Shown: positions 4,335-32,105, numbered from the stretch's first letter. The stretch is 32,105 nucleotides of DNA from an uncultured Pseudomonadales bacterium (GCA_964464985.1 CAYXJQ010000066.1:1-32105); one strand, 5' to 3'. Made by a program: numbers and translations. The notes: generated by a model not told the origin, from the sequence alone.

Positions 4335-4357
4335 TGTTTGTTTTTTTGCTAAATTAT

Positions 4358-4452
4358 TCTTGCTGTGGAACACGGTGTAAATCCGTGACTGTGCCGCAAC
4401 GGTGAGTTTGTTTTTAACTATAATTACAAATAAGTCCGATCTTCAGCCCAAA
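4358..4452 (+). promoter_or_regulatory. candidate cobalamin (B12) riboswitch aptamer, short form lacking the large peripheral extension
   Basis: Positions 4367-4406 read GGAA-CACGG-UGUAAAU-CCGUG-ACUGU-GCCGCA-ACGGU-GAG. This parallels the E. coli btuB core element by element: GGGAA-UCCAG-UGCGAAU-CUGGA-GCUGACGCGCAGCGGUAAGG. A B12-box-like AAGUCCGAUCUUCAGCC lies at 4432-4448. Its CAGC can pair with GCUG at 4362-4365 to close the aptamer. A weak hairpin plus U-run (4458-4481) and the SD AAGAAAGG (4550-4557) follow. Confidence 0.6.
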
Positions 4453-4562
4453 TCAACCTTGACGAGCATCAAGCGATTTTTCCAGGCTTTTCCACGGCAT
4501 ACTATTAATTAAAATCTGTCATTATTGATAGATTTGGGCGATAAAGCCACAAGAAAGGTCTG

Positions 4563-16523: not shown

Positions 16524-18167
16524 CTATTTTCTAAAAAGCCCCTTTTTGGCTAAACTTTTTTTATCTAACTTAGTAATAATAGTTGGCTCAACCTTAGCTC
16601 TGCCTTCTTTTTTGAGTTCAATTAAAAATTGTTCTAAATTAGCAGTAGCCACACACACTCGGGAATCTGCCCCACCATAATACACAAAGAGGGTTTGATC
16701 AATAATTACCGCTCCACAAGGATAAACAACCCCAGCTTTAAAACCATCATTTTCGTACCATTCTTGAGGCTGTAAAATTGGTTGGCTAGAGCGGTGCAAA
16801 ACCACACTAGGATCTTCTAAATCAAGTAACATTGCTCCCACCTTATATGGATGACCTTCTTTATCATCAATTGATTGATAAATTAGTAGCCAGCCGTCTT
16901 TAGTTTTAAGTGGAGGAGCTCCAACACCAATTTTTCGACTATCCCACCACAAAGCTGATCGTGGACTAATCTTCTTCTCACCTTTTAAATATTGTCCGTC
17001 ACTAAAATCCAAATCATCTCTAAAATCTATTAAAATATCTGGGAAAACACGATGAAAAACCACATATTTACCATTAATTTTTTCTGGCAAAATACAGGCA
17101 CTTTTGGTCACCAAACCTGGCTTTGAAATTAAAACTGGATGAGTCCATAGCCAGTTGTGACTTAAAAAGTCTTTAAGCGCAATTGAAGTTAAAGCAATAC
17201 GGGGTTCAGAATAACCATTAAAAGCTACATAGGTCATATAAATTCGATCACCAATTTTAGTTAAGCGAGGATCTTCACAACCACCACAACCAGCAGAAAC
17301 AAAAGCCATGTTAACCTGACCCGGTGTAACCGAACTTTCAAAGGGCTGAGTTGGAATAAAAATTGGTTTTTCCAGTTTTTGCTTAATGTTTAAACCGTCG
17401 ATGCTACTAGCATAACCGATTGAAGACACATAGTCGTAACCTTGAGCTCGATAAAGTAAATGAACTTTGTCAGCTTCGTAGAGCGCGGCTGGATTAAAAG
17501 TATTAAAGGACTCCCAATCATGGGCTGGCTCAGGACTAATTAGGGGATTAACCCTAGGTCTTTTAAGTTGAGACTTTTCTACAATTTCAAGTTGTTGAGT
17601 AATTCGATAACTAGGATAAATCGTTGCCCAAACTGCTTCATCTTCAACCAACCAATAAGCAATATACTGACCCTTAATCTCTAAAAGATCAATAAATTTA
17701 ATTTTCCTGCCAGCCACCTGATCATACATTTCCCAAACTGGTTGATGATGGCGCCAAATTAATTTAGGATCGTCTCCAGCGCTAAAACCAGCCACTCCCA
17801 CCTCATAAGCCTGATAGTTATGGTAGTGGTAAAAAAGCAATACCCCCTCAGAAGTTTTAAAAGCATTTTGCATGCTAATTTTAGAACGATCAATGAACTC
17901 ACTAGCTGGAGTCAACTGATTTGCGTAACAATCATGAATAAAAGACCGCCTTTTCTCCCTAAATCGAGGGTATTGTTTAACAACATCTTCTCTAACTCTA
18001 ACTTTTTCAAAGAGAAAGCCATCTCTACTTTTAGCCGATTTAACAATTTTACCCGAATTTTTATCTTGGATAATTAAATAGACTAAGTCCTGATATTCAC
18101 AAAAATAAACATTTTGAGAAATAGGCCTGTCTTTTTTTTGATAAAATAAGTCAAAAATCCTCAACAT
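16524..18167 (-). CDS. GH130-like glycosidase with divergent N-terminal domain
   Basis: The C-terminal ~340 aa carry NPLISPEPAHDWESFNTFNPAAL, CEDPRLTKIGDRIYMTY and FVYYGGADSRVCVATANLEQF. These are nearly collinear with the second module of the neighbouring gene. The N-terminal ~200 aa are weakly similar at best. Confidence 0.65.
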   Translation of the reverse strand: MLRIFDLFYQKKDRPISQNVYFCEYQDLVYLIIQDKNSGKIVKSAKSRDGFLFEKVRVREDVVKQYPRFREKRRSFIHDCYANQLTPASEFIDRSKISMQNAFKTSEGVLLFYHYHNYQAYEVGVAGFSAGDDPKLIWRHHQPVWEMYDQVAGRKIKFIDLLEIKGQYIAYWLVEDEAVWATIYPSYRITQQLEIVEKSQLKRPRVNPLISPEPAHDWESFNTFNPAALYEADKVHLLYRAQGYDYVSSIGYASSIDGLNIKQKLEKPIFIPTQPFESSVTPGQVNMAFVSAGCGGCEDPRLTKIGDRIYMTYVAFNGYSEPRIALTSIALKDFLSHNWLWTHPVLISKPGLVTKSACILPEKINGKYVVFHRVFPDILIDFRDDLDFSDGQYLKGEKKISPRSALWWDSRKIGVGAPPLKTKDGWLLIYQSIDDKEGHPYKVGAMLLDLEDPSVVLHRSSQPILQPQEWYENDGFKAGVVYPCGAVIIDQTLFVYYGGADSRVCVATANLEQFLIELKKEGRAKVEPTIITKLDKKSLAKKGLFRK

Positions 18168-21968: not shown

Positions 21969-22085
21969 TTGCTCCCCCTGATTGACGCATTTCGGAACAA
22001 AGAAATAGAGTTCGGATTCAGCTTACAAAATATCCAAACAGTATTTGAAACGTTCGATATTCAACCAGTCTATGCAACAACCTAG
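21969..22085 (+). other. start-less in-frame coding tail (candidate alternative C-terminus of the recombinase after excision; int-C-like fragment)
   Basis: From the core CTC CCC onward there are 37 sense codons (LPLIDAFRNKEIEFGFSLQNIQTVFETFDIQPVYATT) ending at TAG 22083-22085. There is no ATG or SD at usable spacing. The phase relative to CTC CC is the same as in the recombinase ORF at 28332. Confidence 0.35.
21970..21978. repeat. junction core J0: TGCTCCCCC, identical to the tRNA-Asn 3' end/flank at 32039-32047
   Basis: 9/9 identity in direct orientation. It sits exactly where host-like genes end and element genes begin. Related cores occur at 28331, 30459 and 31214. Confidence 0.5.
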
Positions 22086-22381
22086 CCTCTAAATGCTAGC
22101 CAAACTTGAACAATTGCTGTAATCACCGTTACCACCGTTAGAGCAAATATCGCTATCTGTAGCCGTCCGTTTTTCTTATCTAGTTCTTTAATCGTTGTTT
22201 CTAGTTTTGAAACAGTTCCTCGAACCTTCTTACTCTCTGCTTGATAGGTATTACTTAGTAAAACCAAGGCTTTGACCGTTCGTTCTAGTCGGTCATTGGT
22301 TGTGGCAGTAAGGTCGTTTGCATACCCGTTGCCCGTCTTTACTCTCTCTGGGAAGTTTAGTATTTCGTCTATTTCATCCAT
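22082..22381 (-). CDS. small tail-anchored membrane protein with coiled-coil
   Basis: 99 aa with a single C-terminal TM helix (LQIAIFALTVVTVITAIVQVWLAF). TATAAT (rc of 22388-22393) lies 6 nt upstream of the ATG. Divergent from the 22421 gene. Confidence 0.5.
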   Translation of the reverse strand: MDEIDEILNFPERVKTGNGYANDLTATTNDRLERTVKALVLLSNTYQAESKKVRGTVSKLETTIKELDKKNGRLQIAIFALTVVTVITAIVQVWLAFRG

Positions 22382-22420
22382 AAGATTATTATATCTCAGG
22401 TTGATAAAATGTGATATATA

Positions 22421-23488
22421 ATGATAAACAGAAATCGTATGAAAAAGTCAAAAGAAAAAGTAAAAAACGAGGTAATGCTTGAGCTTTCAGAAACAATTCT
22501 ATCTGACCTGGAAGATAGTAAGCCACTTGAAGAAATTATCTCGAAGTGTAAAAAACTTGCTCGTATGCGAAATGATGATAGTGCAATTAAATGGTTTTCC
22601 TTAGAATTAAATGGCTACGAATACACCTCTCTACCCCAAGGTACTCAATCTTCTGAAGTGTTCCCAATTGCTCTATCTGCTGGCAGAGGTTTTCAATATA
22701 CAAATCCAGTAACGAAATCAAACGAACCAAGGATGTGGCCTGAGTCAGTTTCCACAATAGAAGCACTAATAAGTAGTAGCCAAGTTGCATTAGAAAACCT
22801 AAAACCTCCAACCAACTACACCCCAGCTATTACAAAGGGTTCCGATACTGGTTTCCTCGCTGGTGCAACGTATGTTCAGGAATCTTACAGAGATGTTCTT
22901 AATTCCATTAGAGTTCAGCAAAACACCTTAACCAGCATAATCAATTCAAAAAAAGCTCTTCTTTCAAAAATCAGAAATAACGTCTACGACTATGTCCTCA
23001 CTCTAAACTTACAACTGAGGTTCGAGAATATTACCGAGTCACTTTTTCAACAAACAAAGATTGAAGTTGATAAACAGCTTCAAGAACTAGACCCCGACAT
23101 TATGAAAAAGTTTGTCGCAGCCTACGACAGACTTAGCTCGAAAAATTCCGAAGAGTGGTCTCAGGCAATGTCTTCCTGCAGGAACGCTCTAAAAGCTTTT
23201 GCTGATGCAGTTTTTCCCGCTCAAAAGAAAAAGCACAAAACAAAAGACAAAAGAGAGCTCGATGTCTCAGATATAAAGGTGAAAAACAGATTAATAGCTT
23301 ATATAGACAAACAGACTAAAGGCAACAAAAGAAGATTGTTGCTTTCAAGAGTTGGTGACCTAGAAAAGAGAATCCACAATATAGAAAATTTCTTATCCCA
23401 AGGTACGCACGAAGGCATAACGGAAAATGACGTGAATATGTGCATTATTGAGACCTACCTAATTATTGGCTCTCTTTTGGATATATAA
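22421..23488 (+). CDS. AbiTii-like (abortive-infection-associated N-terminal domain) protein
   Basis: The N-terminal helix pair LSETILSDLEDSKPLEEIISKCKKLARMRNDDSAIKWFSLELNGYEY resembles the AbiTii signature (...LLRK...LA......W...ELNGY). The rest is unassigned. The start may be ATG 22439, because a -10-like box overlaps 22421. Confidence 0.4.
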   Translation: MINRNRMKKSKEKVKNEVMLELSETILSDLEDSKPLEEIISKCKKLARMRNDDSAIKWFSLELNGYEYTSLPQGTQSSEVFPIALSAGRGFQYTNPVTKSNEPRMWPESVSTIEALISSSQVALENLKPPTNYTPAITKGSDTGFLAGATYVQESYRDVLNSIRVQQNTLTSIINSKKALLSKIRNNVYDYVLTLNLQLRFENITESLFQQTKIEVDKQLQELDPDIMKKFVAAYDRLSSKNSEEWSQAMSSCRNALKAFADAVFPAQKKKHKTKDKRELDVSDIKVKNRLIAYIDKQTKGNKRRLLLSRVGDLEKRIHNIENFLSQGTHEGITENDVNMCIIETYLIIGSLLDI

Positions 23489-23517
23489 ACAAAGATTTTT
23501 TGAAAACGTAATGAAAT

Positions 23518-24231
23518 ATGCCAAAGCTATCTAAGAAAAAACTCACACTCGGACAAATAAGCGAGCTCTCGCCAGAAGAGCAAACTAAGATTTTTGAACC
23601 CATCGTAAAAGCAAATTCTGAACAGTTTCGCCAACTCGCCAATACTCTTGCAGAAACCGCTAACTTTGCAAAATCCATCGGCTCTATAGCTTCATCGATA
23701 AAGCTCCCTATTTTGGACTTGGTGCAAAGTTTTCAACTACCAGAATTACCGATATATGAACCTCCTAAATTGCCAGATATTAGCTTTGAAAGATATGACC
23801 CACCTGTAACTATCAAAAAATCAAAGTGGGAACTTAAGCAAGAAGCAAGAGAGGCTTATCGAACTGAGCTACAAATTCAGGTGCTCGAACAACAACTCAA
23901 TATCTATAAAGGTATGATTGCTCCTCAATATGATATAAATACTGGCGTTATTACTTTTATGGGTAAAAAGATAGAAATTCCTCTCAACACCCAACTAGAA
24001 ATGGTCTGCCGTGTAGTTTTGAAAAACTCTACAAATATGAAAAAGAAGTGGTCTTGGGATGAAGTAATTGAAGCAAATCGAGAATTGCCCGAGAATTTTA
24101 CCTCACGACAAATATATAACGCCTCTCGTTCAATCAACGATAAGGTAGCCATAGAAACACAAGTAAAAGATTTTCTTCTAACAAAACCTCTCTCAACAGT
24201 TCAGTTAAACCCCCAATTCCTGACTAAATAA
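23518..24231 (+). CDS. hypothetical protein with C-terminal OmpR/PhoB-type winged-helix-like region
   Basis: The C-terminal ITFMGKKIEIPLNTQLEMVCRVVLKN...WSWDEVIEA...SRQIYNASRSINDKV...VQLNP follows the trans_reg_C spacing pattern. The N-terminal half is unassigned. Confidence 0.35.
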   Translation: MPKLSKKKLTLGQISELSPEEQTKIFEPIVKANSEQFRQLANTLAETANFAKSIGSIASSIKLPILDLVQSFQLPELPIYEPPKLPDISFERYDPPVTIKKSKWELKQEAREAYRTELQIQVLEQQLNIYKGMIAPQYDINTGVITFMGKKIEIPLNTQLEMVCRVVLKNSTNMKKKWSWDEVIEANRELPENFTSRQIYNASRSINDKVAIETQVKDFLLTKPLSTVQLNPQFLTK

Positions 24232-24251
24232 TTAGCTAACTTTAGCTACTA

Positions 24252-24310
24252 CCCTGTTTTATATCCTAATCGGTAATGAGTACCGAAAAAGTAACGACCA
24301 GTAAACAGGG
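24252..24310 (+). other. structured non-coding element (8-bp closing stem enclosing a 5-bp hairpin)
   Basis: CCCTGTTT (24252-24259) pairs with AAACAGGG (24303-24310). The inner hairpin is CGGTA-atgag-TACCG (24271-24285). It lies between the 23518 gene and the replication/recombination operon. Confidence 0.35.
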
Positions 24311-24330
24311 GTGTAACTTCTCTTCAGCAG

Positions 24331-24358
24331 AACTCAGCAAATTGACTGAGTTTTTTTT
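24331..24358 (+). terminator. rho-independent terminator
   Basis: AACTCAG (24331-24337) pairs with CTGAGTT (24346-24352) around an 8-nt loop, running into eight consecutive T (24351-24358). Confidence 0.6.
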
Positions 24359-24411
24359 GTTGCTCATCAAGATAGATAAGAAAAACAAAGCCAGAAAGGA
24401 GGTGAAACGTT

Positions 24412-24630
24412 ATGCCAATCAAAGCATTCGGCAAAACTGTAAGCAGAGATAAAGCTTACAAAATCATTATCAATGACAAGATTTGTGACATTTGCCACGC
24501 TCGCAACACTGACACACTAGAAGATTTGCTTATGTTCGGCTGGAAGTCTCTTAAAAAATGGACAGACCAAGAGCTTGAAGATTTTATAAGTGAACTTCTC
24601 ATTGAGAATCAACCAAACGGGAAAATATGA
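24412..24630 (+). CDS. small hypothetical protein, first gene of the replication/recombination operon
   Basis: 72 aa with a strong SD, GAAAGGAGGTG, 7-8 nt upstream. ATGA overlap with the next gene. Confidence 0.55.
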   Translation: MPIKAFGKTVSRDKAYKIIINDKICDICHARNTDTLEDLLMFGWKSLKKWTDQELEDFISELLIENQPNGKI

Positions 24631-24923
24631 AAGCAACAATAAGCGAAGTCCAAATTACACCAGTAAAAGCAAACGAAGGTTTAGTTGGGTTTGCCAGCTT
24701 CGTTTATAATGACAGCTTTTATTTTGGGTCAATCGGTATCTACACCAGACCGCAAGGTGGGTATCGATTGACCTACCCCACTCGTAAGAGTAGCAAGGGT
24801 AATTTCAATATCTTTCATCCCATTAACCGAGAAGTATCGGAACAAATCGAAAAGGTAATTATTTCAAAGTTTGAAAACGTAACGAAAATGTATGTTAGAC
24901 ACAATAGTTTTAACACTAAGTAA
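24627..24923 (+). CDS. spoVG: SpoVG family nucleic-acid-binding protein
   Basis: ISEVQITPVKANEGLVGFASFVYNDSFYFGSIGIYTRPQGGYRLTYPTRKS...FHPINREVSEQIEKVI is collinear with SpoVG (V.l......l.a.asi.ld..f.v..i.v......g.fv.mPsrk.....f.di.HPin...r..i...v). Confidence 0.65.
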   Translation: MKATISEVQITPVKANEGLVGFASFVYNDSFYFGSIGIYTRPQGGYRLTYPTRKSSKGNFNIFHPINREVSEQIEKVIISKFENVTKMYVRHNSFNTK

Positions 24924-26055
24924 GAGTATGTTTATACTTAACGACCCAGACAAATTTGAACCGTCGGCAAAGCATATTTTGGATGCTAATTCGTCTCTTG
25001 GTGGTCGTGGATACTTCTCAGCAAAACAGAACCCCACTCGAACAGAATTAAAAAATGGATATTACAAACCTCGTCTTACTCTTACTAATCGCTATAACCA
25101 CACAGGCAGACGAGAAGCCAGCCTGAAGATAGAGCTATCTTTACCTAAATTACTGTTTGGTAATAATTTTGATGAACTAACCACTAAAGACTTTGAAGCC
25201 GTTACTAAACTTCTGCAAACTCGACTTAAAGAAATGGGTGTACTGGTTTTTATGCCCTTACTAGAAAATGCACCAGTATCTGCAATTCACTACTCGAAAA
25301 ACATACCTTTGACTGACGGCACAACACCCCACTTTCTAATCAGCAAGATAAAAGAAGCAAATATAAAGCTTTCACTCGATGTAAACCAAACCGATTACCG
25401 TAATGACGGGCATAGCTACAAATGGCACGCTAATTCATACGAGGTAGCCTTCTACGATAAGCTAAGAGACTACGAGACAGCCAAGAAAAGTGAAAAGCGA
25501 GCGATAGAGAAAGATAATGCTATTCAATTAAATTTGTTCGAAAAGCTTGAAGAAAGACAAAAGTTTGAGGTCTTACGAATTGAAGTGAGACTAAACAGAC
25601 GCCAAAAAATCAGGCAAATACTCAAGAAGATAGATATTCAAGTCGAACCAACCTATAAAGAACTATTCGATACTAGCATTGCTCAAAAAGTTCTTATTCA
25701 CTACCTCGACGAGTTGGAAGATAGACGCTTGCCATTACTGGATTACAAACCAAGGAGCCCAAAATCATTATTAACCGACCTGATTATCAACAATCCAAAT
25801 CTTGGTGTGCTAAAAACAATCCAGCTCTATGGGTTAAAACAAATCTTCGATGAAGTACCACCCCGTGAGCTACGACAAATGTTCAATGGTTATAGCCAAA
25901 GAAGCTGGTATAGGCTCGTTGCTGAAGCCAAAAAGGTCAAATTGCCAAATACACCCAGCCCACTTGAGATAATCCGTAAACACCTAACAGATTTTGAGCC
26001 ATTAAGACTAGTTGATTTTCAGGACTTAATGTTAAATAATGATAAATATAACTAA
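24892..26055 (+). CDS. rolling-circle replication initiator-like protein (Rep_trans / phage gene II-CRI superfamily)
   Basis: MLDTIVLTL opening, YKWHANSYEVAFYDKLRDYE (compare ...lriYDK..E) and FEVLRIEVRLNRRQ (compare tRfE..lr) resemble the conserved blocks of these initiators. Overlaps the spoVG-like gene by 32 nt. Confidence 0.45.
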   Translation: MLDTIVLTLSKSMFILNDPDKFEPSAKHILDANSSLGGRGYFSAKQNPTRTELKNGYYKPRLTLTNRYNHTGRREASLKIELSLPKLLFGNNFDELTTKDFEAVTKLLQTRLKEMGVLVFMPLLENAPVSAIHYSKNIPLTDGTTPHFLISKIKEANIKLSLDVNQTDYRNDGHSYKWHANSYEVAFYDKLRDYETAKKSEKRAIEKDNAIQLNLFEKLEERQKFEVLRIEVRLNRRQKIRQILKKIDIQVEPTYKELFDTSIAQKVLIHYLDELEDRRLPLLDYKPRSPKSLLTDLIINNPNLGVLKTIQLYGLKQIFDEVPPRELRQMFNGYSQRSWYRLVAEAKKVKLPNTPSPLEIIRKHLTDFEPLRLVDFQDLMLNNDKYN

Positions 26056-26056
26056 T

Positions 26057-26227
26057 ATGACTGAAGAGAAATACTATTCCATTGAAGAAGTCGCAAAAAT
26101 GCTTAAAGTCGCCTACCTGACTGTTTATCGTTGGGTACGAGCCAAGCGATTGAATGCTTATAAAGCAGGCAAGCAGTATCGAATCAAAAAAGAAGACTTA
26201 GAGAAGTTTATGAAAGAAAAAGTATGA
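26057..26227 (+). CDS. excisionase-family helix-turn-helix DNA-binding protein (MerR-like HTH_17 type)
   Basis: YYSIEEVAKMLKVAYLTVYRWVRAKRLNAYKAGKQYRIKKEDLEKFM is the classic excisionase/HTH_17 pattern. ATG 26057 follows the Rep stop directly, whereas the track ORF opens at 26039. Confidence 0.75.
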   Translation: MTEEKYYSIEEVAKMLKVAYLTVYRWVRAKRLNAYKAGKQYRIKKEDLEKFMKEKV

Positions 26228-26877
26228 AATTTAAGCTAAGAGAAAACAACAGAGACATCAAAGACGACGAACTCCTTAATGACCTTAAAAGGGTTGCAAA
26301 GTTGTTAAACAAAAAATCGATAACTCAAAAAGAATACAACGAAAATGGAAAATTCACCCACGGAACTCTATGTACACGTTTTGGCTCCTGGAACAATTCA
26401 CTCGAGAAAGCAGGCTTAAAAGTAAGTAGAGAAATGTTTATTCCAAATGAAATTTTGTTCGAAAACCTAGAAAGAGTTTGGCGCACTATTGGCAGACAGC
26501 CGACATACACCGAAATGCGCAAGCCATTATCTGATTATTCTGTAAGTGTTTACGAACGTCGTTTTGGTGGTTGGACTAAAGCTTGTATCAAATTTATTAA
26601 ACTGAAGGAAGGCGATTTAGAGTTTGAAAAAGTTGTTCGAGAAAACAAGCCCCTCTTAAATAAACGTTATATTAGTGAAAAAAAGAGATTAAAAGTATTG
26701 AAGAGAGACAACTACAAATGTCAAAAATGTGGAAGAAGCCCTGCTACACACAGAGAGCTATTTTTACATATCGACCACATCAAACCTTTTACAAAAGGTG
26801 GCGATAATTCGGTTGAAAATTTACAAACACTTTGTAATAAGTGCAATCTTGGGAAAAATAATGATGAAACTGTTTAA
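26224..26877 (+). CDS. HNH endonuclease with two N-terminal homing-endonuclease-associated repeats
   Basis: The repeats are ITQKEYNENGKFTHGTLCTRFGSWNNSLEKAGL and PTYTEMRKPLSDYSVSVYERRFGGWTKACI. The HNH core is YKCQKCGRS...HIDHIKPFTKGGDNSVENLQTLCNKCNLGKNN. ATGA overlap with the upstream gene, and the stop lies 2 nt before the recombinase ATG. Confidence 0.85.
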   Translation: MKFKLRENNRDIKDDELLNDLKRVAKLLNKKSITQKEYNENGKFTHGTLCTRFGSWNNSLEKAGLKVSREMFIPNEILFENLERVWRTIGRQPTYTEMRKPLSDYSVSVYERRFGGWTKACIKFIKLKEGDLEFEKVVRENKPLLNKRYISEKKRLKVLKRDNYKCQKCGRSPATHRELFLHIDHIKPFTKGGDNSVENLQTLCNKCNLGKNNDETV

Positions 26878-26879
26878 TT

Positions 26880-28430
26880 ATGAAAGCAATAATCCTCGCT
26901 CGGGTATCTGACAAAAAACAAGACTCTAACCAAGCTCAAATTCTTCGAGTGTCAGATTATGTAAAACGCAAAAATTTAACTGTTTGGAAAACTTACGAGA
27001 TAGAAGAGTCCTCTACTAAAGGTGATAGAGAAAAATTTCAACAAGTTGTCGAAGAAATAACCCAAGCTAGTGAACCCATTGCCTTAGTAGTCGATACCGT
27101 TGATAGACTTCAACGAAGTTTCAAAGAATCGGTTCAATTAGACGACTTACGTAAAGAAGGAAAGCTCGAAATTCACTTCTACCGAGAAAGCTTAGTTATA
27201 AACCAAAACTCAAACAGCTCTGACCTGCTCCGCTGGGATATGGCTGTAATGTTTGCACGAAGCTACGTTCTTCAACTGAGCGACAACGTCAAAAGGAAAC
27301 AAGAACAAATGCTAAGAAGTGGTATCTACCCGAGCAGACCGCCTTATGGTTACATAAGAGTTCCTATACCTGGAAACGAAAAGAAAACCCATATTGTTAT
27401 TGATGAATACGCTTCAAAAATTGTTCAAAAAGCCTATGAGTGGTACGCAACAAGTAGCTATTCAATGGAGTTATTAAGAGAAAAGCTAAAAAAGGAATAT
27501 GGGGTTGATTGGTCTAAAGGATTTCTAGATAAGGTACTAAAAAACCACTTTTATTACGGCTTAATGACTTGGAATAAAGGCAAATCAAACGAAAAGGTCT
27601 ACCCACACAAATATCCTCACATTATTGAGAAATCACTTTTTGACCAAGTCCAAAAAATAAAGGCAGGATTTAATAAAAAACCGTTCAAATATGCTGGCAA
27701 GCCATACATCTATCGAGGACTGCTTCGATGTGCTCATTGTGGGCTTTCTGTGACACCTGAGAAGCACAAGGGTCACGTTTACTATCATTGCACTCAATAC
27801 AATGGCAAACACGGGGCTAAATGGCTTAGAGAAGAAAATATCACGAAACAAATCGGTAAAGTATTCAAAAATATTCAAATTCCTGAAGAAGTCCTAAATC
27901 AAATCGTTACTTCCTTACAATCTAGCCACGAAGGTAAAGCAAGCTTTAGAGAAACTCAATACAAGCAACTAACTTCAGAGCACGAGAAATACACTAAACG
28001 CCTTGAAAGAATTTATATCGACAGACTAGACGGGCGTATTACTGATGATGAGTATGACAAGTTTTATCAGTCATTCCGTGAGAAAGTAGCAGAAATAGAC
28101 GCTCAGCTCTCAATGCTTCAAGAAGCTGAAGATAACTACTATCTCTCGGCTAAATACCTACTAGAACTCGCAAATAGGGCTTACGAATTGTTTGAAAGTT
28201 CGGAAGTTGAAGAAAGAAGGCAGTTAATCAAGCTTGTACTATCGAACCTTAGAGTAAAAGAGGAATTTGTCCGATACGATGCGATAAAACCGTTCGACAC
28301 ACTCCTAAATTACGACCATCGTCAATCTTGGCTCCCTGTTCATGAGCTTACTCGGACCCAGGGGTGGCTGGAGGGTTTTGTTAATTGTTCTAAAAATTCT
28401 TTACAGTTTACCAGTTTGCAACTGAGGTGA
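26880..28430 (+). CDS. large serine recombinase (resolvase/invertase N-domain + recombinase domain + zinc ribbon/coiled-coil); last 32 codons encoded by repeat/junction DNA
   Basis: The catalytic region is MKAIILARVSDKKQ and VVDTVDRLQRS. The recombinase domain contains RPPYGY. The zinc ribbon is LLRCAHCGLSVTPEKHKGHVYYHCTQ, followed by a coiled-coil. From codon 485 (CTC 28332) the sequence is repeat copy A. Confidence 0.9.
   Translation: MKAIILARVSDKKQDSNQAQILRVSDYVKRKNLTVWKTYEIEESSTKGDREKFQQVVEEITQASEPIALVVDTVDRLQRSFKESVQLDDLRKEGKLEIHFYRESLVINQNSNSSDLLRWDMAVMFARSYVLQLSDNVKRKQEQMLRSGIYPSRPPYGYIRVPIPGNEKKTHIVIDEYASKIVQKAYEWYATSSYSMELLREKLKKEYGVDWSKGFLDKVLKNHFYYGLMTWNKGKSNEKVYPHKYPHIIEKSLFDQVQKIKAGFNKKPFKYAGKPYIYRGLLRCAHCGLSVTPEKHKGHVYYHCTQYNGKHGAKWLREENITKQIGKVFKNIQIPEEVLNQIVTSLQSSHEGKASFRETQYKQLTSEHEKYTKRLERIYIDRLDGRITDDEYDKFYQSFREKVAEIDAQLSMLQEAEDNYYLSAKYLLELANRAYELFESSEVEERRQLIKLVLSNLRVKEEFVRYDAIKPFDTLLNYDHRQSWLPVHELTRTQGWLEGFVNCSKNSLQFTSLQLR
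28331..28380. repeat. ~50-bp junction repeat, copy A (GCTCCCTGTTCATGAGCTTACTCGGACCCAGGGGTGGCTGGAGGGTTTTG)
   Basis: 43/50 identical to copy B. The first 31 nt are identical to copy C. Homology to B and C starts exactly at GCTCCC. Confidence 0.85.
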
Positions 28431-28440
28431 TATTTGAATG

Positions 28441-30363
28441 TTATCCATTAAGCTCTTTTTGAACCAACTCTCTTGTTGTTGGAGAACAAAACTCAAGGAC
28501 GACCACTTGAATCTCTTGATTTCTAAAAACAAGATTTGCAGGAGGCGTATATCCTTTCTTGTTGGTTTCCTCCCAGGCCTTAACATACTTGGCCACCACA
28601 GCTTGTCTATCTTCAGTTCTTTGAGTTGGCAGGGCGTAAACAGTTATAATATCAAAATATCCAACATCTTGTTTTATTTCAGCCACTAAACGAGTCAATT
28701 CTGCAGCTGAATCCTCTGATAAATTTAACTCCCTCCCCTTAACAAGCTCCATCGCTCTTTCTAAATAAAATTGAGTCTTGTTTTTTAGATTCCTTGCATC
28801 GACTAATTTTTTATATATTTTAAAAGTAAAATCTTCAAACTGTTCAGGACTTAGCTCTTGATACTTATATTTAATGTCTTGTTCAATACCTTTATATAGA
28901 TTAGATGATTTGATTCTTGCAACCGCTTCCTCATCTAACACCAAACCTTCTTGTTGCGGCAAGGAGTCGAGAAGGAATAAGTAAAATTGTGTAGCCTGTT
29001 CAGCATCAAGTTTAACATCTTTTCTTTTAAAATTTCTGTAAATGTCTCTTTCCATTCTCTGTAAGGTGTAATCTAGCTTGACGCTTTGCAGAGTGTCATA
29101 ATCAAAATTTGACCAGGTAGCGTCTACCACTGTTTGAGATATATCATTTTCTCCAACAGTAACAAAAGAATTCCAAGCATGTCCTGATTCCTTTTTAGTT
29201 TTTAAAGTCAGGCTAAGGTTTTGAGATTGTGCTTCATATGAAGGGTCGAAATCAGCTCTTGAACCTGATTCATAAAATGCATATGTGTCTTGAAGATAAT
29301 TAAATTTAGTTTGTTTAGCTTTTATTGCTTCAAAAACTACTTTTACTGTGGAGGCAAAATTCCGACAAATACCATTACCTTTAAAGTCGTCACTATCTTT
29401 TTCCCTAAGCCCACGATGTAGTAAATACAAAGCACTATGCTGGTCTGACTGGGTTTCTCCATGTTCTCCGCCCATCTCATCAAGATTATATTTTTTTAAC
29501 CTTGTCACCAATTCTAAAGTTAGTTGAGCTGCTTGCTGAGGTCTTAATAAGGTTAAATCTTTTATGTCTAATTGCTCAACTAACCGTTGACCTTCGGGTG
29601 TCTTTGAATAGCTTCCAATAAAACTAAATATCTGTCCTTGCCAATCGGGTATTTCTACAGTTTTATAATAAGTATGTGCAGAATCTGGATCAGGTATATT
29701 GCGAGAGTCGAAATCTAAAACGGCTCTAGCTTCTTTTGAAATCTCCATTGGTTTTTCTGAAAGCTTTGTTTCTTTACCAAAATTATTCAGGTGTAAAAAT
29801 CTATAGTCTACATCGTCCATCCGTAATTCAAAAACTGCTTCTTCTGGATACTCTCGCTTATTTCTAGACTCCAAGTAAAAGTCTCTAGCTTCCTCCCAGT
29901 TGTCAAAGGTTTTACTACTTGTACCTACTAGTAAATTGGGATTATCAAGAGAACGAAGTCCTGGAAAAGTTACAAAATACTTGCCGTCTTCAGTCGCTTT
30001 GATTGAATGAAAAGTTGTAAATGATTTCTGCAAGGACATCGCCTCTACTCTCGGGTTAAAATTCCCTTTTGCTTCTTGAAGAATTCTTTCCGCTTCTTCC
30101 CTCGAATCAACGGTCCTACTATAGGAAGCTATTGCCCCAATATCGGTATATCCCCCTGGTGAAGTTACTTTATATTTCCCCTCATTTTCTTGTATATCAA
30201 AGAAGAAAGAAGAGGTCGAATCATTTCTACCTTCATCACCACTCTCTTTATCAACAATTTGTTCTGTATTTTCTTGATCTAAAACTTCTGATTTCGCTGC
30301 TTCTTGTAGTTCAGCACCCGGCATTGGTTCGCCAAAATCTTTCATAACATTATTGTAACTCAA
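28441..30363 (-). CDS. large hypothetical protein with transglutaminase-like cysteine-protease core
   Basis: The Cys-His-Asp arrangement is GNGICRNFAS ... (about 60 aa) ... SGHAWNSF ... (19 aa) ... VVDATW, with spacing typical of the transglutaminase-like superfamily. The N-terminal half contains two KY.VT.PG...EEA modules. Confidence 0.45.
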   Translation of the reverse strand: MSYNNVMKDFGEPMPGAELQEAAKSEVLDQENTEQIVDKESGDEGRNDSTSSFFFDIQENEGKYKVTSPGGYTDIGAIASYSRTVDSREEAERILQEAKGNFNPRVEAMSLQKSFTTFHSIKATEDGKYFVTFPGLRSLDNPNLLVGTSSKTFDNWEEARDFYLESRNKREYPEEAVFELRMDDVDYRFLHLNNFGKETKLSEKPMEISKEARAVLDFDSRNIPDPDSAHTYYKTVEIPDWQGQIFSFIGSYSKTPEGQRLVEQLDIKDLTLLRPQQAAQLTLELVTRLKKYNLDEMGGEHGETQSDQHSALYLLHRGLREKDSDDFKGNGICRNFASTVKVVFEAIKAKQTKFNYLQDTYAFYESGSRADFDPSYEAQSQNLSLTLKTKKESGHAWNSFVTVGENDISQTVVDATWSNFDYDTLQSVKLDYTLQRMERDIYRNFKRKDVKLDAEQATQFYLFLLDSLPQQEGLVLDEEAVARIKSSNLYKGIEQDIKYKYQELSPEQFEDFTFKIYKKLVDARNLKNKTQFYLERAMELVKGRELNLSEDSAAELTRLVAEIKQDVGYFDIITVYALPTQRTEDRQAVVAKYVKAWEETNKKGYTPPANLVFRNQEIQVVVLEFCSPTTRELVQKELNG

Positions 30364-30458
30364 GACAATATATTTTATAACTAACTAAGATTAACAGGGT
30401 CTATAAATAACCACTTGAAAAATAATTAAATTTGATATATCAAAATAAGTTGGTTTTT

Positions 30459-30508
30459 GCTCCCCATCCATGATCTTACTCGAACCCAGAGGTGGTTGGA
30501 GGGTTTTG
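30459..30508. repeat. ~50-bp junction repeat, copy B
   Basis: GCTCCCCATCCATGATCTTACTCGAACCCAGAGGTGGTTGGAGGGTTTTG has 7 differences from copy A. In the copy-A reading frame it ends at a TAA 2 codons later. Confidence 0.85.
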
Positions 30509-30549
30509 AATAACCCTGTTAGTTAGAATTAAACTATAATTATTTATAG

Positions 30550-31164
30550 TTATTGTTGTCTTTTGGCTTCTAGAGCATAGGCTTTTTCTTTAGCAGCTCT
30601 TTCGGCTTCACTACAATAGGGAGAATAATAAAATACTCCTATAACTTCCTCTAAAGTAGTAGCTGATTCAAGTTCTTTTAAAGACATATCATTCCATTTA
30701 GCTAGAGCAGCTATTTTAGCTTCACTACAATTAGGAGAATTTTCAAAAACATTTCTAACATCCTCCAAGGTAATAGCTGATTCAAGTTCTTTTAAAGACA
30801 TATCATTCCATTTAGCTAGAGCAGCTATTTTGATTTCATTAATATAAGACCCACAATAATCAAAAATATTTCTAACTTCTTCTATAGTAGTAGCTGATTC
30901 TAGTTCTTTTGGAGCAATATCTTTCAATTTGGCTAGAAGGGCGTTATTGAAGCTGGCACAAGCATCTTCTCTAGACTTAACACTTATGGGAAGTACAACA
31001 CTTAGAACTTCCTCCAAGGTAGTAGCTGATTCAAATTCTTTTAGAGCTTTATTAATATGTTTAGCATAAGAAGCTCTTTCTTCTTCATCTATTAGACTAA
31101 AAGTGGGCTTTTCTTTGGAGCCCCAAACATAAGTGATACCAAATTTTCTTCTCTCTTCTGTCAT
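30550..31164 (-). CDS. tandem-repeat protein (four ~38-aa LKELESATTLEEV...AALAKWNDMS units), unknown function
   Basis: Internal repeats are evident in the translation. Two adjacent units are nearly identical at the DNA level. Confidence 0.6.
   Translation of the reverse strand: MTEERRKFGITYVWGSKEKPTFSLIDEEERASYAKHINKALKEFESATTLEEVLSVVLPISVKSREDACASFNNALLAKLKDIAPKELESATTIEEVRNIFDYCGSYINEIKIAALAKWNDMSLKELESAITLEDVRNVFENSPNCSEAKIAALAKWNDMSLKELESATTLEEVIGVFYYSPYCSEAERAAKEKAYALEAKRQQ
30660..30831. repeat. intragenic tandem duplication, period 114 bp
   Basis: 30660-30717 and 30774-30831 are identical over 58 nt. More diverged units start near 30891 and 31024. Confidence 0.9.
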
Positions 31165-31189
31165 ATGGAAAAATTATATATTATAATAA

Positions 31190-31219
31190 TAAATATATCA
31201 AAACATATCAAATGCTCCC
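31190..31219. repeat. 30-nt AT-rich arm + core, copy 1 (TAAATATATCAAAACATATCAAATGCTCCC)
   Basis: 29/30 identical to 32016-32045, which lies immediately downstream of the tRNA-Asn 3' end. On the minus strand it contains TTGATA/-10-like promoter elements for the gene to its left. Confidence 0.85.
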
Positions 31220-31262
31220 TGTTCATGAGCTTACTCGGACCCAGAGGTTGTTGAGTGTCTTC
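31214..31262. repeat. ~50-bp junction repeat, copy C (3' third degenerate)
   Basis: GCTCCCTGTTCATGAGCTTACTCGGACCCAG is identical to copy A for 31 nt. It then diverges with an apparent 1-nt deletion. Confidence 0.8.
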
Positions 31263-31306
31263 GTATGATTTAAATAAATTACTTTTAATGATACCTTTGA
31301 TTTACC

Positions 31307-31864
31307 TTAAGACAAATCAACAACTCTTGTCTTCCAAATCTTATCATGCAAAGCATCATGTTTTTTATCGATCAATACCATTCCAGAATCAATTAAAAAA
31401 ATTATTTCTCCAATTGACCCAAACAAACCAATAATAATAAGTAGATAAATTAGAGTTCTGCTTACAAAATATCTTTGAATACTTACAGGTTTATTTGTTT
31501 TTAAATCAACAACTTGTAAATTCATTTTTTTCTTACCTATTGTTTGACCAGTTTTTGAAATTTGTTTAATTTGTTTAATAATAATATGGATCATCCAAAA
31601 TAATGAAAAAATAAACGCTAAGAAAATAATTATAAATATGATAGTTGCTATAGGTCTTATAGAGATTAGTTCGTCTAAAAAATTTTTATTTAAAGATTTG
31701 GTGGTTTCAGAATTAATTTCGGAAAAACCTGAGCCAGCTATGAATGGAATAGAAAAAATTAGATAAAAAGGAATTGTTATAATTAACCATTGGAGAGGGA
31801 GCAAAAAATCAATTAAAAAAGCTTTTAATCTTTTTGAGTGTAATGGTTTTTTGTGTTTTTTCAT
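31307..31864 (-). CDS. RDD family membrane protein
   Basis: The N-terminal RLKAFLIDFLL and C-terminal ALHDKIWKTRVV are the characteristic RDD-domain ends, with hydrophobic helices between them. Confidence 0.6.
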   Translation of the reverse strand: MKKHKKPLHSKRLKAFLIDFLLPLQWLIITIPFYLIFSIPFIAGSGFSEINSETTKSLNKNFLDELISIRPIATIIFIIIFLAFIFSLFWMIHIIIKQIKQISKTGQTIGKKKMNLQVVDLKTNKPVSIQRYFVSRTLIYLLIIIGLFGSIGEIIFLIDSGMVLIDKKHDALHDKIWKTRVVDLS

Positions 31865-32015
31865 AAAAAATTTTTACTGACTAAAAATGAATGTTTTTTC
31901 ATAATAATTATACAGAAATATAAATAGCTGGTGCAAATGAAGTTTCAAATCAAAAATTTGATCTTGAAGTGTGGTGTTTTGTATTAAAGAAATAACTTAA
32001 GTAAAAATAAATGAT

Positions 32016-32045
32016 TAAATATATCAAAAGATATCAAATGCTCCC
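32016..32045. repeat. 30-nt AT-rich arm + core, copy 2, overlapping the tRNA-Asn 3' end
   Basis: TAAATATATCAAAAGATATCAAATGCTCCC has one mismatch to 31190-31219. Confidence 0.85.
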
Positions 32046-32105
32046 CCGGTAGGAGTCGAACCTACAACCTTGAAGTTAACAGCTTCCTGCTCTGCCATTG
32101 AGCTA
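32041..32105 (-). tRNA. tRNA-Asn (anticodon GUU), partial: 5' ~9 nt lie beyond the window; CCA not encoded
   Basis: The reverse complement reads TA-GCTC-AATGGCA-GAGC-A-GGAAG-CTGTTAA-CTTCA-AGGTT-GTAGG-TTCGACT-CCTAC-CGGGGGA-G. It has a D arm, an anticodon loop with U33-GUU-A37, a 5-nt variable loop, a canonical T arm and discriminator G, as in E. coli tRNA-Asn. Confidence 0.85.

Follow-up and report, generated by a model that had tools for sequence, protein, structure and literature searches.

Organization of the array beside the tRNA-Asn gene

The window analysed in this study is a DNA stretch of 32,105 nt (CAYXJQ010000066.1:1-32105; coordinates are counted from its first letter), and its host is a member of the Patescibacteria, a bacterium with a tiny genome. 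The right-hand part of the window carries an element with a gene for a large serine recombinase (LSR), referred to as E1, followed by three small recombinase-less modules, M1 to M3, and the 3' part of a tRNA-Asn(GTT) gene (32041..32105, minus strand). These units are joined at copies of the hexamer GCTCCC on the plus strand. The hexamer has 16 matches in the window, compared to 5.25 expected in the motif count, and a recombination-type arm follows this core at five of the 16 sites: the left junction of E1 (21971..21976), the E1/M1 junction (28331..28336), the junctions between M1 and M2 (30459..30464) and between M2 and M3 (31214..31219), and the tRNA-Asn 3' end (32040..32045). These are exactly the five junctions that an earlier reading of the window, made from the sequence alone (the sequence-only reading), had named; they are real, and no other site bears an arm. 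The first four cores have [T/A]CG[A/G]A[A/C] about 15 nt downstream, and the core at the tRNA has TCGAACC 10 nt downstream.

The left arm of the modules is a 53-nt direct repeat present in three copies, starting at 28328, 30456 and 31211 (family D3), the second and third copies being 85% and 77% identical to the first. The right arms of M2 and M3 (31190-31219 and 32016-32045, cores included) are identical at 29 of 30 positions (family D5), a figure on which the repeat search and the sequence-only reading agree. With core-to-core distances of 2128, 755 and 826 bp and one minus-strand open reading frame (ORF) in each of the three intervals, the layout proposed for the modules (a shared left arm, a minus-strand gene and a right arm) holds.

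The core at 32040 spans the final bases of the tRNA-Asn acceptor stem together with the discriminator and the base following it, and the sequence common to the tRNA and the repeats is limited to this core of 6-8 nt. The tRNA was recognized by Rfam (47 bits); its 5' end lies beyond the window, and ARAGORN made no call for the gene, which is truncated by the window end. A complete tRNA-Asn(GTT) is present in L010, a contig of the same population (loci fetched for comparison carry L numbers, and recombinase homologues P numbers), where genes for Exo_endo_phos, a sigma-70 factor and peptidases M24 and M29 lie past it. No tyrosine integrase was found among the scanned window ORFs or, in L010, in the 10 kb that follow the tRNA, which agrees with the sequence-only reading, where a serine recombinase is the only recombinase present.

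The recombinase gene and its internal core

The LSR gene (26880..28430, plus strand) encodes 516 aa with Resolvase (PF00239, 6.8e-13), Recombinase (PF07508, 2.9e-14) and Zn_ribbon_recom (PF13408, 1.1e-6) domains, an N-terminal ARVSD motif at residues 7-11 and a match to a PHROG integrase family (1e-62). Core 28331 lies inside the 3' end of this ORF, a point missed by the sequence-only reading, and makes up the codons W-L-P (residues 484-486). The junction has the form P-core-P'2, P and P' being the arms on the two sides of the core, and is attP-like. The final 32 aa of the protein are encoded past the core by the P' arm of M1 (P'2a), all three domains are encoded upstream of it, and an exchange at the core affects only residues after 486.

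A comparison of homologues indicates what normally follows W-L-P. All 120 listed homologues (P0001-P0120) align with the query over about 94% of its length, i.e. to W-L-P, and then diverge; 119 of them could be anchored for a comparison of tails. Fifty-two of the 119 end no more than 2 aa after W-L-x, for example as WLPR*, which is the ending predicted at the window's tRNA (ccc cgg tag). Another 46 have a tail of the form xx-D-S-N (+3 to +5), the antisense of the tRNA T-loop (GAT TCG AAC). P'-type tails were found in 12 (x-R-[T/N/Q] at +5 to +7, two codons further out) and in two more (F-[L/I]-N), and the last four have a third tail type. As the first two groups comprise 52 + 46 of 119 tails, about 82% of the database copies of this recombinase family appear to adjoin a tRNA and to read into it, supporting the notion that tRNA 3' ends are the general target of the family. 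The recombinase of L002-L005 (96% identical) runs from the same core straight into a tRNA-Asn-like gene. The tRNA-Asn-like genes at the core in L002 (11452-11745) and L027 (3804 to about 4100) seem to be interrupted, at or close to the anticodon loop, by about 190-250 nt of extra sequence that could be an intron; the L002 insertion (about 190 nt) was judged by eye, and ARAGORN calls neither gene.

The recombinase tail seems dispensable, since residues past W-L-P vary freely (tRNA antisense or P' arms). Because only the last ~30 codons are swapped, the integrated copy very probably remains functional. The P half-site doubles as the code for a conserved C-terminal motif, ..KPFDTILNYxxRQxWLP, in the window ORF and in P0001-P0120; constraints on the protein and on the DNA site therefore overlap.

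E1 as an integrated element

The sequence to the right of core 21971 comprises a P' half-site of type P'1 and an orphan reading frame (21972..22085, plus strand). Translated in the recombinase frame, it yields LPLIDAFRNKEIEFGFSLQNIQTVFETFDIQPVYATT*, and this peptide matches residues 483-510 of P0067 (E 1e-7). The gene for P0067 lies on contig L041 (9579 nt), whose two ends overlap exactly over 30 nt, so that L041 is most likely circular, with a length of about 9.55 kb; there the recombinase gene continues uninterrupted through GCTCCC into the P0067 tail. At position 3884 of L002, the same core and P'1 arm/tail are joined to another upstream recombinase gene. Since the frame after 21971 encodes the recombinase tail of a circular relative, core 21971 can be read as host-core-P'1 (an attL-type junction with host flank on its left), with the corresponding P arm at 28331, and 21977..28330 (plus strand, ~6.35 kb) as an integrated element with attP inside its own recombinase gene. 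The orphan frame would then be the recombinase tail of the excised circular form.

The genes of E1 are a 99-aa gene, AbiTii, a 237-aa gene, a 72-aa gene, SpoVG-like, a 387-aa gene, HTH_17, an HNH endonuclease and the LSR. The order SpoVG-like, 387-aa gene, HTH_17, variable cargo slot and recombinase recurs in L002-L005, L008, L041 and L042. The GC content of E1 is 36-39%, versus 26-35% in the left flank. The HTH_17 protein (62 aa; 26039..26227, plus strand) matches PHROG excisionase families (best E 1.3e-11) and is kept beside the recombinase module in related elements; it is a candidate recombination directionality factor.

Anatomy of the half-sites

Half-sites were aligned by anchoring them on the TC of GC-TC-CC. 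The P arm (reverse complement GCCAAGATTGACGAT) and the P'1 arm (CCCCTGATTGACGCA) are inverted repeats, with GATTGACG common to both around the TC; attP consists of two inverted half-sites whose centre is the TC dinucleotide of GCTCCC. The P, P'1, P'2 and tRNA arms have G10-A11 in common. CGAAC occupies positions 19-23 in 15 of 15 P'2 arms versus positions 14-18 in five of five tRNA arms. For serine integrases, the motif in the bacterial half-site has been reported to lie 5 bp nearer to the centre than in attP (Rutherford et al. 2013, PMC3783163). The same 5-bp shift is seen separately in the protein tails, with DSN at +3 to +5 in 46 homologues versus x-R-T/N/Q at +5 to +7 in 12.

The left arms of the modules, about 50 bp long, had been taken for plain conserved arms. 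Because their CGAAC sits 5 bp further out than in the tRNA arm, they are better described as attP-type P' half-sites, and they continue the recombinase frame: the three read LPVHELTRTQ..., LPIHDLTRTQ... and LPVHELTRTQ..., with differences that are synonymous or conservative. They lie on the plus strand at 28337..28380 (P'2a) and 31220..31263 (P'2c), both supported by direct repeat D3, nhmmer and the half-site table, and at 30465..30508 (P'2b), supported in the same three ways and matching the native P' arm of P0052 (L007) at 20 of 23 bases. The arm after 21971 (P'1) differs in type from the three-copy repeats (P'2), a correction to the sequence-only reading. P'2 is the native arm of sister recombinases that are about 60% identical to that of E1, namely P0029 (L001), P0052 (L007) and P0040 (L008).

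A third arm type (P'3) occurs in L020, and a crossover at TC fits the data because this arm has just GCTC in common with the others. Directly to the left of GCTC, 7 nt differ at three positions between L020 (acactgt, reverse complement 2879-2885) and L021 (gtacggt, reverse complement 2337-2343), despite 99.7% identity over the preceding 2.3 kb; a simple TC crossover does not explain this mismatch.

Two other explanations of the arms were considered. Reading the left arms as the 3' end of a structured RNA or as a pseudo-tRNA was rejected, as Rfam gave nothing at E <= 1 and there is no complementary 5' acceptor strand, and an attP-type half-site fits instead. Folding of the junction regions as DNA, on both strands, showed no attC-like structure (z from -0.49 to +0.41). 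The designation "integron-like" used in the sequence-only reading stands only by analogy, there being neither an IntI nor an attC-like hairpin.

The three modules and their conserved right arm

Each module consists of an attP-type P' half-site, one minus-strand gene and an AT-rich right arm at the next core. M1 (28337..30458, minus strand, 2122 bp) carries a 640-aa gene with no assigned function (28441-30363, minus strand) and ends in a partial right-arm motif (gatatatcaaaataag...); a database lookup gave no record of the 640-aa protein in its exact window form. M2 (30465..31213, minus strand, 749 bp) carries a gene for a 204-aa repeat protein (30550-31164, minus strand) with no family match. 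Four tandem units of about 114-132 nt (motif ..LKELESATTLEEV..) lie within that gene at 30583-31088. M3 (31220..32039, minus strand, 820 bp) carries a gene for an RDD-family membrane protein of 185 aa (31307-31864, minus strand).

The conserved right arm lies on the plus strand at 31190..31213 in M2 (TAAATATATCAAAACATATCAAAT) and at 32016..32039 in M3, where it is now beside the tRNA. A scan for ATATCAAAAnATATCAA with up to two mismatches in 348 kb (the window and the fetched loci) gave five distinct occurrences, each 0-2 nt before GCTCCC, in three genomes and with different cargo: the ends of M2 and M3, L027 at 3786, and two modules of L030. The L027 copy adjoins the 3' end of a tRNA-like sequence, in synteny with the tRNA-Asn found in L021. 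The possibility that the right arm is a degenerate P arm or another canonical half-site was ruled out by its lack of G10-A11 and its variable register. Of the promoter-like sites in the region, the best lies in the right arm of M2 (31201..31173, minus strand; TTGATA, a 17-nt spacer and TATAAT), and it is an 11/12 sigma-70-like match directly upstream of the 204-aa gene; no comparable site is listed for M1 or M3, and the total count of promoter-like sites in the region does not exceed that of shuffled controls. A divergent promoter region in E1 (22382-22420, gTTGATAaaatgTGATATAtaat) resembles the reverse complement of the right arm (TTGATATgTTTTGATATAttt), and owing to this resemblance the right arm may derive from a promoter/operator type of the E1 family.

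These data bear on the possibility that segmental duplication or unequal crossing-over of a unit near the tRNA produced the repeats, or that they are displaced tRNA 3' fragments of tyrosine-integrase islands. Direct repeats beside a tRNA 3' end and a T-loop-like CGAAC in the arm would be in agreement with such an origin. However, the three cargo genes are unrelated and similarity is confined to the arms, beginning at the core, as the sequence-only reading had argued in favour of site-specific recombination. Moreover, the arms are not copies of the tRNA, since their motif stands 5 bp out of register and they differ elsewhere too; they extend the recombinase frame with synonymous or conservative changes; and the window and the 10 kb past the tRNA lack a tyrosine integrase. 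This origin is therefore largely refuted and highly improbable.

Comparable loci and population variants

A metagenome scan for the core plus a P'2 arm gave 18 loci, 16 of them plausible, and nearly all lack a recombinase ORF to the left of the core. In L021, the order is chromosome, core, P'2, a 1-kb module, core, P'2, an 8.4-kb element and tRNA-Asn; the module has a single minus-strand gene of 320 aa, and the recombinase of the 8.4-kb element reads into the tRNA-Asn. L030 has at least five recombinase-less modules within 4.7 kb, two of which are single P-loop kinase genes ending in the conserved right arm. L027 has one 2.1-kb module (678-aa gene) between a core plus P'2 arm and a right arm, core and tRNA. 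The modules stand in a different order in L027 than in L030 and have diverged unequally (88% versus 69% nucleotide identity). In L027, the junction between a 307-aa gene and a kinase gene (1081-1133; aaatcaactatagga|ctcagat) shows the "tcaactatagg" motif of other module ends, with no core or P' arm, and may be a degraded junction.

At its right end, the 320-aa module matches at 100 of 100 nt between L021 and L030, and in L020 the identity is 99.7% over 2.3 kb. Its right neighbour is an LSR element in L021, a kinase cassette in L030 and a P'3-type element in L020, with divergence starting from the core. New insertions thus lie on the tRNA side of the resident module, which fits insertion beside the tRNA. 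The core-exact polymorphism of modules expected in relatives by the sequence-only reading was accordingly seen for this module, although not at the window's own locus.

Full elements also form arrays. They occur in tandem in L002-L004, and tandem recombinase-core-P' junctions are found in L002-L004 and L008. In L008, a decayed element next to tRNA-Asn keeps a recombinase fragment and a P arm at the core, unlike M1-M3. This fragment (17404-17808), 134 aa from the C-terminal part of a large serine recombinase, still reads into the tRNA-Asn, and the decayed element also carries a small resolvase and an HpaII-type restriction-modification system.

These arrays raise the question of whether M1-M3 might be decayed remnants of three full P'2-lineage recombinase elements that integrated serially and were never mobile as small cassettes. 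In addition to the tandem arrays and the partly decayed element of L008, two facts would be consistent with this: full elements, too, begin with a minus-strand gene behind the P' arm, and homologues of the 640-aa cargo gene exist outside cassettes. Against this, decay in L008 left a recombinase fragment and the P arm, whereas the right ends of M1-M3 consist of a conserved AT-rich arm and show no remnant of a recombinase gene. The right arm, identical at 29 of 30 positions between M2 and M3, recurs, again directly at the core, beside unrelated cargo in L027 and L030, and three independent deletions stopping exactly at the core would not be expected. We consider this explanation unlikely.

A locus with a neighbour gene 91% identical to that of the window and a tRNA-Asn with no array (L036) was considered as an empty site and rejected, as it has nothing in common with the window downstream of the tRNA. 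In a viral collection, searches with the recombinase, with the P'2 pattern and with the right arm plus core gave no hits.

Proposed mechanism

Starting from the observed anatomy of the sites, the targeting of tRNAs across the family, the intragenic attP, the circular relatives, and the similar modules and core-exact polymorphism at other loci, the following series of events can be proposed. E1 would integrate first, at the site formed by host flank, core and tRNA, and because attP lies in the last codons (W-L-P) of its own recombinase gene, this integration would swap the C-terminal tail of the enzyme. The modules would then enter, singly or partly as a block, at the core beside the tRNA through LSR-catalysed exchange at its TC, and each insertion would leave right arm-core-tRNA (core 32040), a renewed attB-like target. 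The left arms of tRNA-proximal cores vary, being P arms, right arms or unrelated sequence, and the tRNA half-site (B', with the T-loop TCGAACC) appears to be the sole constant part of the target. Provided that insertion needs this half-site, the recombinase element would be the oldest and most distal. M1-M3 would have moved as cassettes in trans, and we infer this movement, the acting recombinase and the order of events.

We regard it as moderately probable that the region 21971-32045 is an island built in this way by an LSR at the tRNA-Asn 3' end, an estimate that covers the joint reading in which E1 came first and the modules followed, singly or partly as a block. Stepwise growth of the array through a serine recombinase (serial accretion), as proposed in the sequence-only reading, is well supported by tandem arrays and by the recombinase-less modules of L021, L027 and L030, and the accretion model agrees with all of the comparative evidence, but its individual steps meet a difficulty at the inner junctions. 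Under canonical serine-integrase rules, right arm-core-P'2 is attL-like, recombinase-core-P'2a (28331) is attP-like, and right arm-core-tRNA (32040) is attB-like.

Several points weigh against our interpretation: the inner, attL-like junctions should not recombine with the attB-like tRNA site under these rules; 28331 and 32040, as attP-like and attB-like direct repeats, would lead an active integrase to excise the M1-M3 block; the P' arm of E1 is of type 1 and those of the modules are of type 2; a cassette site has one good half-site only, as the right arm is without G10-A11 and shifts in register by 0-2 nt; and homologues of the 640-aa cargo gene (69% and 60% identity) lie in ordinary surroundings with no cores, arms or tRNA, so that cargo genes are not confined to cassettes. 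In addition, no presence/absence variants of M1-M3 were found in the window's own population, where L010-L013 and L040 are identical to the window. Contigs with the RDD, 204-aa or 239-aa proteins are all identical to the window as well, and the L010 contig ends inside the P'2b repeat. Single-module insertion would need relaxed pairing, or repeated cycles involving full elements. The Ccr enzymes of staphylococcal cassette chromosomes (SCC) show relaxed site pairing.

The difficulty at the inner junctions would be avoided if M1-M3 had come as one block, carried by a circle whose attL-type site (right arm-core-P'2a) recombined with the attR of E1 (recombinase-core-tRNA) in a reaction dependent on a directionality factor, the inner junctions being older scars from elsewhere. 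The outer junctions are exactly attP-type (28331) and attB-type (32040), as attL x attR would yield; E1 codes for the excisionase-like HTH_17 protein; and attL x attB, needed for the entry of single cassettes, is forbidden by the canonical rules (PMC3783163). However, this scenario merely displaces the origin of the inner array, the different module orders in L027 and L030 argue for movement of single modules, and the attP-like and attB-like direct repeats would be unstable if the integrase were active. Entry of M1-M3 solely as such a block is therefore quite improbable, and we retain serial accretion, with or without partial blocks, as the preferred account.

Comparison with known systems

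Among known systems, SCC composite islands with their ccr-less cassettes come closest. In such islands, ccr-less tandem cassettes are mobilized by CcrAB/CcrC, being excised or circularized by a neighbour's Ccr (PMC11470126). Both there and here, LSRs insert at the 3' terminus of a conserved gene in a way that renews the target, and tandem arrays lie between short direct repeats with some cassettes lacking a recombinase, which applies to the window and to the other loci. The differences are: insertion here is at the tRNA-Asn 3' end instead of rlmH (orfX); the recombinase falls outside the Ccr family, with NCBIfam scores of 52.9 bits for CcrB (cut-off 900), 40 for CcrA (700) and 18 for CcrC (900); there is a single recombinase gene rather than a CcrA/CcrB pair, and the attP core lies inside it; each module holds one gene in 0.75-2.1 kb, flanked by a P' half-site on one side and a conserved AT-rich arm on the other; and the host belongs to the Patescibacteria. 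Thus, while cassette accretion by serine recombinases is already known from SCC, what would be new here is the tRNA target, the different lineage and the intragenic attP.

Phage-type large serine integrases (A118/LI, Bxb1, phiC31 and SPbeta) share with the E1 enzyme the set of domains, inverted attP half-sites around a central dinucleotide, a distal (zinc-ribbon) motif 5 bp nearer to the centre in the bacterial half-site (PMC3783163), and a small excisionase-like protein encoded nearby. They differ in that the family described here has a tRNA target with an apparently arbitrary second half-site, and an attP that overlaps the 3' end of the integrase gene itself. Hybrid junctions (P-core-P' and right arm-core-P') are also frequent in the present arrays, which suggests reactions beyond strict attP x attB, or repeated cycles dependent on a directionality factor.

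An att site within the integrase gene is an arrangement that a 2021 review calls exclusive to archaea (PMC8371274). The SSV-type ("suicidal") archaeal integrases resemble the E1 recombinase in having the att site inside the ORF, a tRNA target and a gene that is altered on integration (PMC8371274). Those enzymes are tyrosine recombinases that have been reported from archaea only, and their gene is split into two inactive parts, whereas here a bacterial serine recombinase has only its tail exchanged. It would be a bacterial, non-suicidal counterpart of the arrangement reviewed as exclusive to archaea (PMC8371274).

Classical islands that target tRNA genes differ from this one in that here there is no tyrosine integrase and the tRNA repeat consists of only the 6-8 nt core. 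Cis-mobilisable elements (CIMEs) accrete together with integrative and conjugative elements at one att site by means of tyrosine integrases, and are thought to be deletion derivatives that retain both att sites. Like M1-M3, they are att-flanked, recombinase-less and arranged in tandem with a recombinase-encoding element; in contrast, one end of the present modules is a conserved arm that is not att-like. We found no description of tRNA-targeting serine recombinase elements in the Patescibacteria (also called CPR) in the open-access literature.

With integrons, the locus shares small, mostly single-gene units without a recombinase, in one orientation, on one platform beside a recombinase gene. 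It differs from them in having no tyrosine IntI and no attC-like folded single-strand site, and in that insertion takes place beside a tRNA; it may also lack a common Pc promoter logic (M2 has a promoter-like site of its own). A broader proposal, which we put forward tentatively as a possibility, is that Patescibacteria carry a serine-recombinase platform for gene cassettes at tRNA genes, a functional analogue of integrons that evolved independently from another class of enzyme, in which cassettes with one-sided sites are captured, stacked and reshuffled beside tRNA-Asn by LSRs in trans. The cassette site would comprise a P' half-site, a GCTC core and a conserved promoter-bearing arm. The LSRs would come from neighbouring integrative elements, with attP in their own gene and the C-terminus rewritten at each move, and the sites would act in double-stranded form.

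Patescibacteria have very small genomes, and few routes of gene gain have been described for them. If our interpretation is true, a hotspot on the tRNA side, where a serine recombinase stacks and exchanges one-gene modules, would provide a concrete mechanism for the turnover of their accessory genes, and would extend the SCC principle past staphylococci and their relatives to tRNA targets. The recombinase family may also have practical use, as it recognizes a tRNA 3' end together with an apparently arbitrary second half-site and carries a short, clearly bounded attP of about 50 bp in its own gene.

Additional observations

A match resembling a cobalamin (AdoCbl) riboswitch lies on the plus strand at 4348-4481, scoring 42 bits, under the Rfam gathering score of 50. 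The AbiTii-domain gene of E1 occupies 22421-23488. The cargo slot that immediately precedes the recombinase is filled differently from relative to relative, with genes of nuclease, restriction or defence type: the window has an HNH endonuclease (26224-26877), and the other loci have MTase+SacI-like, MTase+ResIII, GmrSD or Eco57I-like genes, as compared at L002 7815-10004, L041 2656-6599, L042 152-1243 and L008 7293-9997.

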